NCBI GenBank assembly: GCA_937858655.1 | Contig: CALLZE010000155.1 | Span: 1 to 58,437, forward strand | Length of the DNA stretch: 58,437 nt | Direction of reading: 5' to 3' | Origin: an uncultured Coriobacteriales bacterium | GTDB taxonomy: Bacteria; Actinomycetota; Coriobacteriia; WRKU01; JAENWW01 | Shown here: one piece after another, positions 2,720 through 7,047 of the stretch | Position numbering within the stretch: the stretch's first letter is position 1 | Layout of the letters: the number at the start of each line of letters is the position of its first letter | Translations under genes and position numbers: made by a program | The notes under the pieces: model-generated | The model's input: the letters and a program-made list of their open reading frames with translations, nothing else | What the model was told of the DNA's origin: nothing | Databases searched by the model: none

Positions 2720-3603
2720 CGCGCTTTCTTAAAGACTCACCAGAACTTCTCGAAAAGCTCGCCCAAGTTGATATTGTCTACACTGACCTTGACGGTACTC
2801 TGCTTGGTCGCGGCGGCACCCTTCTTATTGACGGCGAGGGGAACCCCGATTTTAATACCGCGGCAACCGTTGTCGCGGCAAATAAAGCCGGTCTGCCCAT
2901 TGTTCCTGTCACGGGACGTTCATGTGCACAACTTACAGAAATTACGCGCATGTGCGGGTGGACCGATTACATCGCGGAAGCTGGCGCAATTCGCTCATAT
3001 TTTGATGGTAAAGAGCGCACCTTCATGTTCGATATCCCTGAGTGGAACTCTGAACTTAAACGTCAGCTCATAACAAAAACGCCTATTGAAATTATTCGCG
3101 AACACGGCGTTGTTGAGAGACTTATGGAAGCATTCCCTGGTTGCATCGAATATCACACGCCGTGGGACGTCCACCGCGACGCTACCGAGGTACTGCGCGG
3201 CTTCCTCAATCGCCAAGCAGCCCTTGAGCTTCTCGACGAGATTGATCTTCCTCTCTCGCTGATTGATAACGGTGTCATCCATCCCCGCCTGCACACACTC
3301 AAAGCAAGCGATGAGCCTATTCGCGCCTATCATCTCACCCCAGCCGGCGTGTCAAAACGCAGGGCTATTGCGCTTGACCTCGAATATCGCGGCATTGATC
3401 CCTCACGCGCCATCATGATTGGCGATGCGCCCAGCGACATGCTCTGTGCCGAAGTGGTGAGCGTCAGCATTCTCGTTGAGAATGCCCTTCGTTCGCCGGG
3501 GATCGATAAGCGCATCGATAACATTGAAAATACTGCCATAGTCGAAGGTTTTGCCGGCGATGGCTGGAGTCGCGTCATTAACGAAGTACTCTCAAATTTT
3601 TAA
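2716..3603 (+). CDS. HAD-superfamily hydrolase (Cof/HAD-IIB-like)
   Basis: Motif I YTDLDGTLLG and C-terminal GDAPSDM motif. ATGA start/stop overlap with the TetR gene. Confidence 0.8.
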   Translation: MTRFLKDSPELLEKLAQVDIVYTDLDGTLLGRGGTLLIDGEGNPDFNTAATVVAANKAGLPIVPVTGRSCAQLTEITRMCGWTDYIAEAGAIRSYFDGKERTFMFDIPEWNSELKRQLITKTPIEIIREHGVVERLMEAFPGCIEYHTPWDVHRDATEVLRGFLNRQAALELLDEIDLPLSLIDNGVIHPRLHTLKASDEPIRAYHLTPAGVSKRRAIALDLEYRGIDPSRAIMIGDAPSDMLCAEVVSVSILVENALRSPGIDKRIDNIENTAIVEGFAGDGWSRVINEVLSNF

Positions 3604-3674
3604 AGCAAATAAACGCAATTCTGTCCGTCTCACTACGCGAAGACTGGCACCTTGCTGCGCATTTTGTGTATACT

Positions 3675-3852
3675 AGACACCTGTGCTGTGCCGATTTTTT
3701 GCTCAGCCGTACCTATAACCGAGAGAAAAGGACTTCTGTGAAACCTCACAGTACCCAGCCTCGGTAGGTGTTCCCTTGTAGCGCATATGCGCATTTGACT
3801 CTGTTATGCGAGGAGCACTCATCGAGGCCACTTAACATAACGGAGGAATCCC
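3675..3852 (+). promoter_or_regulatory. Structured 5' leader (candidate riboswitch/attenuator) of the MgtE-like/NRMT operon
   Basis: There is a TATACT -10-like hexamer at 3669..3674. Hairpin CTGTGA-AACC-TCACAG at 3736..3751. Palindrome GCGCATATGCGC at 3781..3792. Helix GCCTCG (3758..3763) pairs with CGAGGC (3823..3828). A 10-bp helix, CTCTGTTATG (3799..3808) with CATAACGGAG (3836..3845), covers most of the GGAGG SD at 3842..3846. Confidence 0.5.
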
Positions 3853-5751
3853 GTGATTTATCTTTCCCAACTGCTCGGAAAGCCGGTCGTAGATGCCGCT
3901 GACGAGCAAATCGGAACAATTAGCGATATAGCCATCGCAACTGGCGAGGTCTTCCCTCGTGTAACTGCGCTTGCCTTTAAAGGACCCGATAAGACGCCCT
4001 TTATGTTGTCGTGGCGCAAATATGTCAAAGAGTTTGAGGGCGATAAGGTCGAGCTCAACACGTCATCCGACGAGCTGCGCTTTAGTTACTTGCAGTCTGA
4101 TGAGATTTTGCTTTCTCGTGACCTTCTCAACAAACAAATTGTCGACACTCAAGGCATGAAAGTCGTTCGCGTAAACGACCTCAAACTATCCGATTCGAGC
4201 AACACACTTCGTCTGCTTGGAGCAGAAGTCGGTATGCGCGGGCTTTTACGCGCCATCTCCCCTGGCTTTGAAAAAACTGTAGGCCGTTTTCTCTCAATTT
4301 TTAATCAGAGCATTCCTGAAAATCTTATTGCGTGGAACTATATGGACTTGCTTGAGCATGACTTAAGCCAAGTAAAGCTCTCGGTAACACACAAACGTCT
4401 TCATGAGTTACACCCAGCAGACGTCGCAGACATTTTGGAGCAACTCGCGCCAAACCAACGCGCAGCGGTATTTGCCCACCTCGACAACACACAAGCTGCT
4501 GAGACAATTTCAGAACTCGAAGAGGAGTACCAAGCCGACGTCATTGAAGACCTCTCCGAGCGACGCGCTTCTGACTTGCTGGCTGAAATGGATCCTGACG
4601 ATGCTGCCGACGTCATCGGCGACCTTGATTACGGCAAAGCAGAACGCCTCCTGCGCCTTATGGGCGTCGAAGACTCTGATGCCATCCGTAAACTGCTCGG
4701 TTATCGCGAAAAAACCGCGGGCGGTATCATGACTCCTGAAGTCACCACTGGGCGTGAGTCTATGACGGTTGAAGAGACCATCGAGCACATCCGTGATGTG
4801 GCAGAACAACGCGAAAGCATTCATTACGTGTACGTCATTGATTCAGAAAACGAGCTCAAGGGCGTCGTTTCATTACGCCAACTACTTCTTGAACCTGTTG
4901 AGAAGACATTGGGCGAAATCATGGAACGCAATCTTTTTGTGGCCAATCCTGATGATGACCAAGAAGAGGTAGCGGAAACTATCTCGAAATATGACTTGCT
5001 CTCTGTTCCGGTCGTTGATGATAAGCATAAACTCCTTGGTATCGTTACCATCGATGATGCGCTCGACGTTCTCGAGGAAGAAGCGGAAGAAGACCTCGTG
5101 CGGGCAACTGGTCGCAGCGAGCACAAAGAGGGTGCCAACCCCCTCGCATGGCTCATGCCTCGTCGAAGCGGCTGGATTGTCTTGTGGCTGATTGCCCTGT
5201 TTGGCATGTCGCTTGCTTCATCAACACTGAACAGTAAATATATGGCGAGTTCTGCCCAAATGAGTTCAAAAACTTTCGGCATCTTAGTATTGCTTGCTGG
5301 CGCCGCTCAGATTGCCACTCTTGGCGCAACCATTTTGCCGCTCATTCTCATTTCACTTGAAGAAAGCGCGATTCGTGGCATCGAACTGCTCACAGATGCC
5401 AAAAAAGATGAACGCCCCTCGCTCGCCAAGCGCTTCTTATTTGGAGGAGGCGTCGCCTCTGCGAGTGGTTTATTCTCAGGCATTATCGTTCTTGCACTAA
5501 CCGATTTGCTCACAGGCTCAATTGGACTTTCGAGCGCGTACGGGTTGTGCGTTTTTGCAGCAGCACTTGTCAGCGGGCTTTTGCTTACCGCTCTCGTCAA
5601 TATGACAGTGCGTCGCGACGACAAAGGAAAGCCAACTTCACCAGCGGGCATTTCTCTTATCGCCATGCTCGTATGCACACTGATTGTATTAGGCAGCGCT
5701 TTTCTGCTACTCGTTTACGTTCCAGCCTTTTCAGCGAGCATTTTGGGATAA
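3853..5751 (+). CDS. PRC-barrel / MgtE_N / CBS-pair membrane protein (MgtE-related, atypical C-terminal membrane domain)
   Basis: GTG start after GGAGG. PRC-like segments LLGKPVVDAADEQIGTISDIAI and LLNKQIVDTQGMKVVRVNDLKL. MgtE_N-like LHELHPADVADILEQL...DPDDAADVIGDL. CBS pair GGIMTPEV...VPVVDDKHKLLGIVTIDDALDVLEEE. The C-terminal ~190 aa is hydrophobic, but I could not see MgtE pore signatures. Confidence 0.8.
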   Translation: MIYLSQLLGKPVVDAADEQIGTISDIAIATGEVFPRVTALAFKGPDKTPFMLSWRKYVKEFEGDKVELNTSSDELRFSYLQSDEILLSRDLLNKQIVDTQGMKVVRVNDLKLSDSSNTLRLLGAEVGMRGLLRAISPGFEKTVGRFLSIFNQSIPENLIAWNYMDLLEHDLSQVKLSVTHKRLHELHPADVADILEQLAPNQRAAVFAHLDNTQAAETISELEEEYQADVIEDLSERRASDLLAEMDPDDAADVIGDLDYGKAERLLRLMGVEDSDAIRKLLGYREKTAGGIMTPEVTTGRESMTVEETIEHIRDVAEQRESIHYVYVIDSENELKGVVSLRQLLLEPVEKTLGEIMERNLFVANPDDDQEEVAETISKYDLLSVPVVDDKHKLLGIVTIDDALDVLEEEAEEDLVRATGRSEHKEGANPLAWLMPRRSGWIVLWLIALFGMSLASSTLNSKYMASSAQMSSKTFGILVLLAGAAQIATLGATILPLILISLEESAIRGIELLTDAKKDERPSLAKRFLFGGGVASASGLFSGIIVLALTDLLTGSIGLSSAYGLCVFAAALVSGLLLTALVNMTVRRDDKGKPTSPAGISLIAMLVCTLIVLGSAFLLLVYVPAFSASILG

Positions 5752-5760
5752 CACGCACAT

Positions 5761-7047
5761 ATGACACCGCAAAATGACATAGAAACTCAACCAGCTGCAC
5801 AGCGTACGCCATGGTATAAACGTCTTGGCCTCGTAATAACCGCAATGGGCCCCGGCATTATTGCCGCAAGCGCGGGCAACGATGCGGGTGGTATTTCCAC
5901 GTATTCTACAGACGGAGCCACTTTTGGATACAAAACGCTCTGGATGATTTTCCTCATGACGTTTTCGCTCATCGTTGTCCAAGAAATGGCTGCCCGCATG
6001 GGAGCGGTCACTGGCAAGGGCTTCGCGGCGCTCATTCGTGAAAAGTTTGGCGTCAAGTCTACAATTTTTGCGATGACCACGCTTCTCGCCAGCAACGCGG
6101 CAACGAGTGTCGCGGAATTCGCTGGTATTGCTGCCGCATTCGAACTCTTTGGCGTAAGCCGTTATATTTCGGTACCCATTGCCGCGATTACCGTATGGCT
6201 TCTCGTCACTCGCAGTTCTTTTAAATATGTTGAAAAAGTATTTTTGGTGCTTTCAAGTGTCTTTGTGACCTATATCATCGCTGCCTTTATGGCAAAGCCA
6301 AATTGGGGCGAAGTCATTCATGCAACGGTCGTTCCGCAATTTGAACCAAACGTAAATTTTGTTCTACTTGTGGTTGCAACGGTCGGTACAACAATTGCAC
6401 CTTGGATGCAGTTTTTCGTGCAGTCAAACATTGTTGACAAAGGTACGTCAGTAAAAAATCTCTTCTATCAGCGTGTTGATGTTATTACGGGAGCCATAAG
6501 CGCCAATATTGTTGCTTGGTTCATCATCGTCGCAACAGGTGCGACCCTCTATAAAAATGGCATCTTGGTAAGTTCGGCTGAAGCGGCAGCAAAAGCCCTG
6601 ACACCTGTCGCCGGTAAATACGCGACCATCCTCTTTGCGGTTGGTCTCGCGGGCGCGTCTCTTTTGGCTGCCTGCGTATTGCCGCTAACTGCTGCGTATG
6701 CCGTCACGGAAGCATTTGGCTGGGAGCGCGGGCTTGATCATTCATTCAGCGAGGCTCCCGCGTTCAATATCATTTTTACTTTCGTCATTCTGTTTGGAGC
6801 CGCCCTTGTGCTTGTCCCCAAGGCTCCCCTTATTACCATCATGGTTATGTCCCAAGCAATAAATGGAGTCTTGCTCCCTATTTTGATGATTTTCCAGATA
6901 CTAATCATCAACGATAAGCGTATTATGGGAAAGTACACCAACAAAAAGCTCACCAATATTCTTGCTTGGATTACTGCCTTAGTTGTTATCGCGCTTACTA
7001 TTGTTCTTTTGGTAGGAAGTGTTCTGCAAAAAATGGGTATTTTGTAG
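5761..7047 (+). CDS. NRAMP-family transporter with NRMT-type (Mg2+-transporter-like) metal-site substitutions
   Basis: 428 aa, about 11 TM helices. TM1 reads GPGIIAASAGNDAGGISTYS where canonical NRAMPs have DPGN. TM6 reads VGTTIAPWMQFFVQS where canonical NRAMPs have A..MPH. It starts 9 nt after the MgtE-like gene. Confidence 0.8.
   Translation: MTPQNDIETQPAAQRTPWYKRLGLVITAMGPGIIAASAGNDAGGISTYSTDGATFGYKTLWMIFLMTFSLIVVQEMAARMGAVTGKGFAALIREKFGVKSTIFAMTTLLASNAATSVAEFAGIAAAFELFGVSRYISVPIAAITVWLLVTRSSFKYVEKVFLVLSSVFVTYIIAAFMAKPNWGEVIHATVVPQFEPNVNFVLLVVATVGTTIAPWMQFFVQSNIVDKGTSVKNLFYQRVDVITGAISANIVAWFIIVATGATLYKNGILVSSAEAAAKALTPVAGKYATILFAVGLAGASLLAACVLPLTAAYAVTEAFGWERGLDHSFSEAPAFNIIFTFVILFGAALVLVPKAPLITIMVMSQAINGVLLPILMIFQILIINDKRIMGKYTNKKLTNILAWITALVVIALTIVLLVGSVLQKMGIL

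Follow-up and report, generated by a model that had tools for sequence, protein, structure and literature searches.

A tiny upstream open reading frame as the probable translational switch of a Mg2+-transport operon in Coriobacteriia

Introduction

What kind of device governs a Mg2+-transport operon whose leader is highly structured and matches no known riboswitch? Bacteria are known to regulate Mg2+ import through the M-box riboswitch; enterobacteria also use leader peptides, the translation of which registers Mg2+. The leader considered here lies near one end of a 58,437-nucleotide stretch of DNA from an uncultured Coriobacteriales bacterium (the whole stretch is referred to as the window). 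A sequence-only reading had pointed to a helix that buries the Shine-Dalgarno (SD) sequence of the operon, had judged the leader not to be a canonical M-box, and had proposed a diverged or minimal Mg2+-sensing RNA, or a different ligand class. It overlooked an upstream open reading frame (uORF) that proves to be the key feature. In the account developed below, the leader is probably a leader-peptide translational switch, functionally similar to mgtL, mgtP and mgtQ and unrelated to them in sequence.

The operon and its relatives

The operon begins with a PRC-barrel, MgtE_N and CBS-pair protein, followed by an NRAMP-family transporter (Table 1). In the latter (5761-7047), DAGG and TTIAPW replace the motifs associated with Mn2+/Fe2+, and a 5-formyl-THF cyclo-ligase gene lies further downstream. 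Orthologues of the 632-aa protein were found in 58 of 61 related genomes, and additional orthologous loci, all from Coriobacteriia, were drawn from a species-level genome collection and from metagenomes. The comparison set is made up of 165 orthologous leaders from Coriobacteriia genomes and metagenomes, each with 150 nt or more of sequence upstream. The window's own genome is referred to as G000, and G001 (locus L002), in which the first-gene protein is 73% identical, is the only genome of the same family.

A sigma-70 consensus scan of the leader returned no full promoter under a strict rule, and the TATACT hexamer listed in Table 1 is taken as the probable promoter. A terminator scan proposed a single "terminator" on the leader, which was rejected because it is the 6-bp hairpin taken from the opposite strand.

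Table 1. Features of the leader and of the operon, in coordinates of the window (G001, the same-family genome)
Feature	Position	Strand	Remarks
-10-like hexamer TATACT, probable promoter	3669..3674	+	Surrounding block GTGTATACT conserved in G001
Upstream helix, 5' strand (ACCTA, bulge TAA, CCGAG)	3711..3723	+	Partner 3760-3769; part of the predicted SD-closed state; closes around the ribosome-binding site of the uORF
uORF Shine-Dalgarno AAGGA	3728..3732	+	5 nt before the uORF GTG
6-bp hairpin CTGTGA/TCACAG, uORF start codon in the stem	3736..3751	+	Sequence coincides with uORF codons 1-5; identical in G001
uORF (putative leader peptide), GTG AAA CCT CAC AGT ACC CAG CCT CGG TAG, MKPHSTQPR*, 9 codons	3738..3767	+	Homologous intact mini-ORFs in 152/165 leaders
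Long-range helix, 5' strand GCCTCGGT	3758..3765	+	Lies in the final uORF codons plus base 1 of the stop; conserved in G001
Palindrome or small hairpin GCGCATATGCGC	3781..3792	+	Absent from G001, not conserved
Anti-SD strand CTCTGTTATG	3799..3808	+	Conserved island in G001 (TTCTGCTATG)
Long-range helix, 3' strand ATCGAGGC	3821..3828	+	Island CATCGAGGCC conserved in G001
SD strand CATAACGGAGG, including main Shine-Dalgarno GGAGG 3842-3846	3836..3846	+	Island CATAACGGAGGA conserved in G001
First operon gene, PRC-barrel + MgtE_N + CBS-pair protein, 632 aa	3853..5751	+	Pfam PF05239, PF03448, PF00571; GTG start 3853
Second operon gene, NRAMP-family transporter, NRMT-like	5761..7047	+	PF01566 at 5.6e-94; motifs DAGG, TTIAPW (translation)

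The M-box question

The search against Rfam that the sequence-only reading had recommended bears out its view that this is not a canonical M-box. With Rfam 15 no riboswitch was found in the window at the gathering score, and at E<=10 positions 3580-3900 gave nothing but a chance lncRNA match. When the whole genomes G000 and G001 and those of two other lineages were searched with the M-box model (RF00380, membership threshold the 44-bit gathering score), no M-box was found anywhere in them. The window thus fails a covariance model that gives 113-139 bits in relatives. Nor does it have room for the ~160-nt multi-helix aptamer, with ~55 nt between the putative transcription start and the uORF and no conserved fold. 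What it does share with M-boxes is its location, upstream of a Mg2+ transport gene, here encoding MgtE_N/CBS and NRAMP proteins.

The relatives show how the two kinds of element are arranged. Of the first 20 relatives scanned, 13 have a canonical M-box (113-139 bits), followed by an intrinsic terminator, ahead of the operon; two further cases came to light later, making 15 altogether. Between the terminator and the gene these relatives have a second conserved block, homologous to window 3690-3774. Because they carry the full M-box as a separate upstream module, the block in the window is not a degenerate M-box; the window's lineage has kept the uORF module alone. The suggestion that the leader is a divergent or pared-down Mg2+ sensor RNA, or belongs to some other ligand class, fares badly on this evidence, since the M-box of the relatives stands apart, the conserved positions are those of the mini-ORF, and no conserved aptamer emerged. 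The segment GGUAGGUG, which had been likened to the M-box core, is the last codon of the uORF, its stop codon and the bases that follow.

A class-wide mini-ORF

Aligning orthologous leaders, another check that had been recommended, did reveal conservation. As judged from these alignments, the only part of the leader conserved throughout the class is the tiny uORF with its own Shine-Dalgarno, which spans 3728-3767 in the window. The frame is intact in 152 of the 165 leaders, in 72 distinct DNA versions encoding 43 peptides, and the conserved positions are the SD, the start codon, CCN, AGT and the stop. Its commonest form is GTG NNN CCN NNN AGT CCN TAG, or M-x-P-x-S-P-stop, as in MKPHSP, MTPSSP, MTPFSP and MRPSSP. 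An AGGA or GGA core, mostly 4-7 nt 5' of the start, is present in 110 of 111 distinct leader contexts. None of the 165 leaders was seen to carry the motif with a broken frame; by itself, the absence of in-frame stops from frames of 5-14 codons carries little weight.

More telling is the manner in which the frame varies. Among the 72 versions the start is GTG in 64, TTG in six and ATG in two, so that TG is invariant and the first base is G, A or T, and the stop is TAG in 62, TGA in eight and TAA in two. The conserved proline is encoded by CCT (33), CCA (20), CCC (10) or CCG (9); CCN occurs in all 72 accepted versions, the filter having demanded CCN two codons before AGT, and it is the third-base variation there that counts as an independent observation. 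Synonymous pairs also occur for His (CAC/CAT), Phe (TTC/TTT) and Thr (ACC/ACT), and the end of the frame reads CGG TAG in the window and CGA TAA in G001. The frame is kept in each of seven length classes (6, 7, 8, 9, 10, 11 and 14 sense codons), insertions of 3 to 24 nt inside the core preserving it in every case; the longer peptides include MKPRPHSR, MKPKPRPHSR, MKSKPRPHSSC, MKVRKSKPHS[KNLM] and MNGNPHSSGHIHKR. Where the TAG has been lost (L137:482-569 and L138), a TGA two codons later ends the frame (MKPHSPRP*), again with a Pro codon before the stop.

The serine codon (window 3750-3752; another example lies within L012:1352-1436) is AGT in 72 of 72 versions. In the main genes of the relatives AGT makes up 2% of Ser codons, and because it is invariant despite being rare, it is constrained at the level of nucleotides or decoding, beyond the coding of a peptide. 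The uORF likewise favors the rare codons CCT, CCA and TCA, a usage suggesting that either slow decoding or some contact made by the nucleotides is under selection.

Thirteen leaders have no convincing uORF. Eleven of these show no trace of the motif (no match at E<=1 to R1, a covariance model of the ~85-nt uORF module, using cmsearch with filters off). The other two are L110, which has an intact Pro-less frame of five codons (MYHSR), and L102, in which the motif lies farther upstream. R1 matches 61 of 151 sampled genomes of the class, with one copy in each apart from a weak second match in G000, and the copy adjoins the orthologous gene wherever the lists of R1 matches and orthologues overlap; the families that R1 misses carry longer uORF variants. 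Run against 140 other Actinomycetota genomes, R1 found nothing outside the class.

The second match in G000 (C59:11566-11648, or L111:767-849; 32 bits) was judged spurious, a chance resemblance between ribosome-binding regions. It consists of a terminator, AAAAGGA and a GTG AAA CCA that opens a long ORF. That ORF (778-2439) encodes 553 aa when read from an upstream TTG in the same frame as the GTG, and its N-terminus, MKPVYVFGHRHPDNDS, looks like that of a DHH-family pyrophosphatase.

Some loci of unusual arrangement are also worth recording. At L102:738-1160 the gene order is swapped, with the NRAMP gene first, and the M-box and uORF module still stand at the operon head; because they do so despite the swapped order, the leader belongs to the operon and not to the MgtE-like gene. 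In family f4 (L025, L026, L028 and L125) an operon with an 11-codon uORF lies directly 3' of a tRNA gene and a terminator-like hairpin, and no recognizable promoter was seen between that hairpin and the operon. In family f7 (L113, L114, L116 and L118), which has no M-box, a TATAGT -10 box is immediately followed by a GC-rich hairpin with a U-tract and then by the uORF module; the hairpin, ~60-100 nt upstream of the uORF, could be a 5' stabilizing stem-loop or a further attenuator.

RNA structure around the uORF

One helix around the uORF is supported by covariation across the class. In it the SD, spacer and start of the uORF pair with its last codon, its stop and the next four bases (77% of cells paired), with a covariation score of 0.220 against 0.168 for shuffles, a value that none of 500 shuffles reached. 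One of its pairs is AU in 42 cases, GC in 18 and GU in 16, and between families the strands differ and remain complementary, as in GGACCU:AGGUCC, GGGUCU:AGACCC, GGGCCU:AGGCCC and GGGUCA:UGACCC, the last with UGA as its stop. The equivalent helix of the window is formed by ACCUA/CCGAG (3711-3723) with CUCGG/UAGGU (3760-3769). In the M-box-type relatives, a GCUCCC segment situated 7 nt beyond the stop of the uORF complements GGGAGC, the main SD (95% pairable). It pairs with that SD in the minimum free energy (MFE) folds, and it would lie within reach of the footprint of a terminating ribosome. A second upstream copy of GGACCU was considered as a partner of the stop region and set aside: it is complementary in 74% of cells and shows no covariation beyond shuffles.

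A new aptamer that binds a ligand or Mg2+ would have to be reconciled with these data. The apparent mini-ORF would then merely reflect conserved aptamer nucleotides, with the alternative helices serving as the expression platform. Such a reading would suit an element that is conserved, single-copy and upstream of a transporter operon, in which AGT and UAG are kept beyond coding needs and one helix covaries, and tandem riboswitch arrangements do exist in general. It is nonetheless very improbable. Even at E<=10 Rfam offers no matching family, and RNAalifold places 0 consensus pairs on an alignment of 88 leaders, so that no conserved multi-helix aptamer was found there and a single covarying helix takes the place of the several that a generic riboswitch fold would possess, the second candidate strand lacking covariation. 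The in-frame insertions of 3 to 24 nt within the core, the restriction of the first base of the start to G, A or T, the exchange of TAG, TGA and TAA and the free third base of CCN all look like coding, and the spacer from the module to the main start ranges from 51 to 167 nt.

Enterobacterial small proteins that regulate Mg2+ transporters, MgtR and MgtS, offer another precedent, and they can be counted in favor of a functional micropeptide whose action is in trans, perhaps upon the transporter, with the helices as ordinary mRNA structure. The motif (K/R)-P-[HYSF]-S is indeed conserved at the amino-acid level. The peptide, however, has 5-14 hydrophilic residues, too short for a membrane helix, and the start and stop regions are locked into a covarying helix, with an anti-SD strand that a ribosome at the stop could reach, an arrangement that belongs to a device acting in cis. 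A role in trans is thus scarcely credible.

Competing helices in the window

The leader of the window folds to an MFE of -59.1 kcal/mol, against -47.5 +/- 4.3 for dinucleotide shuffles (z -2.72; 3 of 200 shuffles are as stable), and its structural islands are kept in G001. To that extent the sequence-only reading of a structured, conserved leader with two competing helices holds well: its TATACT box, its 6-bp hairpin and both helices were all recovered, and the palindrome at 3781-3792 is present in the window and is not conserved in G001. The long-range helix described as GCCTCG (3758-3763) with CGAGGC (3823-3828) is in fact 8 bp long (3758-3765 paired to 3821-3828, one of the pairs being G.U). 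The SD-sequestering helix, CTCTGTTATG with CATAACGGAG (3836-3845), has 10 bp with one G.U and covers four of the five bases of GGAGG. In nested folds the two are mutually exclusive and nearly isoenergetic: the state with the long-range helix and an open SD lies at -58.8 kcal/mol and the state with the upstream and anti-SD helices and a closed SD at about -56, a gap of ~3 kcal/mol.

Aligned with G001, the 3' half of the leader has diverged except for three islands, TTCTG.TATGC (anti-SD strand), CATCGAGGCC (3' strand of the long-range helix) and CATAACGGAGGA (SD strand), which in this pairwise alignment are exactly the strands of the putative switch. The long-range helix differs by a single change, CGG to CGA, that turns the G.U into A-U; the SD-sequestering helix remains pairable at nine of 10 positions; and the upstream helix has changed on both sides, from CCGAG:CUCGG to UCGAG:CUCGA. 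The MFE of the G001 leader is the long-range state (z -3.7). When metagenomes were scanned for nearer relatives of this family, one 73%-identical contig turned up; it lacks the upstream region, and for that reason the helices particular to the window depend on a two-sequence comparison. A single same-family genome, offering one compensatory change and one G.U that became A-U, is thin evidence.

In the predicted folds of the window and G001, GAGAGA (3721-3726), just 5' of the uORF SD, also pairs with UCUUUC (3862-3867), which forms codons 4-5 of the main gene, closing the whole leader into one domain. Outside the window's family, relatives have other codons at these positions.

A model for the switch

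The folding models identify the 3' end of the reading frame as the strand that would toggle in the window. This segment (GCCUCGGUAGGU) could pair backwards with 3711-3723, closing over the uORF's own ribosome-binding site, or forwards with 3821-3828 in the long-range helix. Were the forward helix absent, 3799-3808 would pair with 3836-3845 and the SD of the operon would be buried. Because ribosomes must melt whichever helix holds the 3' end of the uORF, translation of the uORF, which we infer to occur, would be coupled to the state of the main SD. Ribosomes that initiate, pause or finish on the mini-gene would decide which helices form, and the choice of helix would set the translation of an operon for Mg2+ transport that encodes an MgtE-sensor-like protein and an NRMT-like NRAMP. 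The predicted elements are those of a leader-peptide attenuator, namely a short open frame with its own SD and start, a conserved Pro codon (L110 is Pro-less), and mutually exclusive stem-loops that overlap the frame and appear to gate the downstream gene.

The sign of the response may differ between lineages. In the M-box-type relatives, the ribosome-free fold would close both ribosome-binding sites and a ribosome at the stop would cover the anti-SD, a geometry that suggests activation. The stop is often preceded by a Pro codon, a slow termination context. In the window and G001 the effect would be of opposite sign, as a ribosome at the end of the uORF would block the long-range helix and leave the anti-SD helix to close the SD; a ribosome held near the start would instead exclude the upstream helix and favor the open state. 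When ribosome footprints were imposed on partition-function folds of 94 leaders, complemented by detailed folds, a modeled ribosome at the uORF stop lowered SD accessibility from 0.44 to 0.29 in the window and from 0.47 to 0.21 in G001, and raised it slightly on average, from 0.34 to 0.37, in the relatives. Across the 94 leaders no consistent polarity emerged, the window's family and the M-box-type relatives having opposite signs, and because these crude footprint models disagree no direction of the switch is claimed.

What the proposed switch may sense

Mg2+ is, by analogy, the likeliest signal, because of the function of the operon, the M-box in relatives, the invariant Pro codon and the precedent of mgtL; the module is linked to Mg2+ because relatives place a true M-box directly before the same mini-gene. 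As in the mgtL precedent, the ribosome itself might be the sensor, if low Mg2+ delays either termination or passage over the invariant Pro and rare AGU codons. Tentatively, the M-x-P-x-S-P-stop frame, six codons rich in rare ones on which a ribosome would pause, may be regarded as a ribosome-based Mg2+ sensor of Coriobacteriia, a second, translational checkpoint after the M-box and, where M-boxes have been lost as in the window's lineage, the sole cis control by Mg2+ of the NRMT importer operon. We consider this extension possible but rather doubtful.

The mini-ORF could also be translated and sense nothing. It would then serve in constitutive unfolding of the leader (translational coupling or standby) or as a shield from Rho or RNases, and control by Mg2+ would fall to the M-box, where present, and to the MgtE_N/CBS sensor protein. 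A structured leader does hide the SD, the M-box lineages already own a Mg2+ sensor, the operon encodes cytosolic Mg2+-sensor domains of its own, and the Mycobacterium tuberculosis Mbox works through uORF translation and Rho (PMC12810186). On the other hand, a strict class-wide P-x-S, rare codons and the context of the stop codon exceed the needs of an ORF that merely unfolds RNA, and lineages whose genomes are without any M-box retain the element. A purely passive frame therefore seems unlikely, and a leader-peptide switch remains the preferred reading.

Implications

If the leader-peptide switch is real, it would add to the known systems an unrelated and extremely small leader peptide with mgtL-like logic in Actinomycetota, as well as a natural series of riboswitch (transcription) and uORF (translation) before one operon in many relatives. 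Lineages with the uORF alone would make it easier to tell whether Mg2+ is sensed by the ribosome, by the RNA or by both, and a device this short, single-copy and conserved should be easy to test with reporters. For annotators it carries a warning that conserved, structured transporter leaders with no Rfam match may be coding attenuators and not new riboswitches. Should the sensor reading also be true, then together with mgtL/mgtQ and the mycobacterial Mbox-uORF, mini-ORFs with Pro codons would represent a convergent and widespread gauge of cytosolic Mg2+.

Comparison with known systems

Searches of the literature found analogues and no description of this uORF. The closest in logic are mgtL, which belongs to the leader of mgtA in Salmonella and E. 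coli, and mgtP, in the mgtCBR leader; both are short ORFs with conserved Pro codons, located ahead of Mg2+ transporter genes (PMC6460261, PMC3641672). Slow translation of the Pro codons of mgtL switches mgtA on (PMC6460261; Gall et al. 2016 cited therein). In both leaders the progress of the ribosome on the ORF picks between alternative stem-loops (PMC6460261, PMC3641672), as is proposed here. Their output, however, is Rho-dependent or attenuator-controlled transcription, whereas here it is apparently sequestration of the SD and thus translation. With Rfam 15 at E<=10 no homology to mgtL or the Mg_sensor RNA was detected, and as a result the likeness is one of functional analogy only. Unlike mgtL, with its 17-aa peptide, the uORF encodes 5-14 aa, shows no sequence similarity to it, belongs to a host in the Actinomycetota (Coriobacteriia) and, in relatives, stands in series with an M-box.

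In size the nearest counterpart is mgtQ, an 8-codon ORF in the mgtC-mgtB intergenic region of Salmonella; its translation controls the ribosome-binding site of the Mg2+ transporter gene that lies downstream (PMC8092293). It too is a very short ORF that overlaps alternative stem-loops, and it resembles the arrangement in the relatives, where the anti-SD lies just 3' of the uORF stop. It reportedly depends on acidic, ribosome-destabilizing residues, its Pro codon being dispensable (PMC8092293), whereas the present peptide is marked by basic residues, an invariant Pro and a Ser encoded by AGU. The two sequences are unrelated, and the polarity modeled in the window's own lineage is the opposite.

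Like the uORF module, the M-box (ykoK, RF00380) lies upstream of Mg2+ transporter genes, including those it controls for NRAMP-related Mg2+ transporters (PMC4072509), and it precedes the orthologous operon in many relatives. Compared with it, the conserved element of the window is a different and additional module.

Both elements come together in the pe20 Mbox of Mycobacterium tuberculosis, which is followed by a small conserved uORF2 (rv1805A) with an invariant proline and uses a translational expression platform (PMC12810186). There the M-box gates the ribosome-binding site of the uORF and acts through Rho termination (PMC12810186), whereas in the relatives considered here the M-box has an intrinsic terminator and the uORF is a separate unit. 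The uORF2 peptide is specific to mycobacteria according to its authors (PMC12810186), and the window is without any M-box. Even so, the order of M-box, uORF and operon in the relatives parallels the Mbox-uORF order at pe20 (PMC12810186), and both occur within the Actinomycetota.
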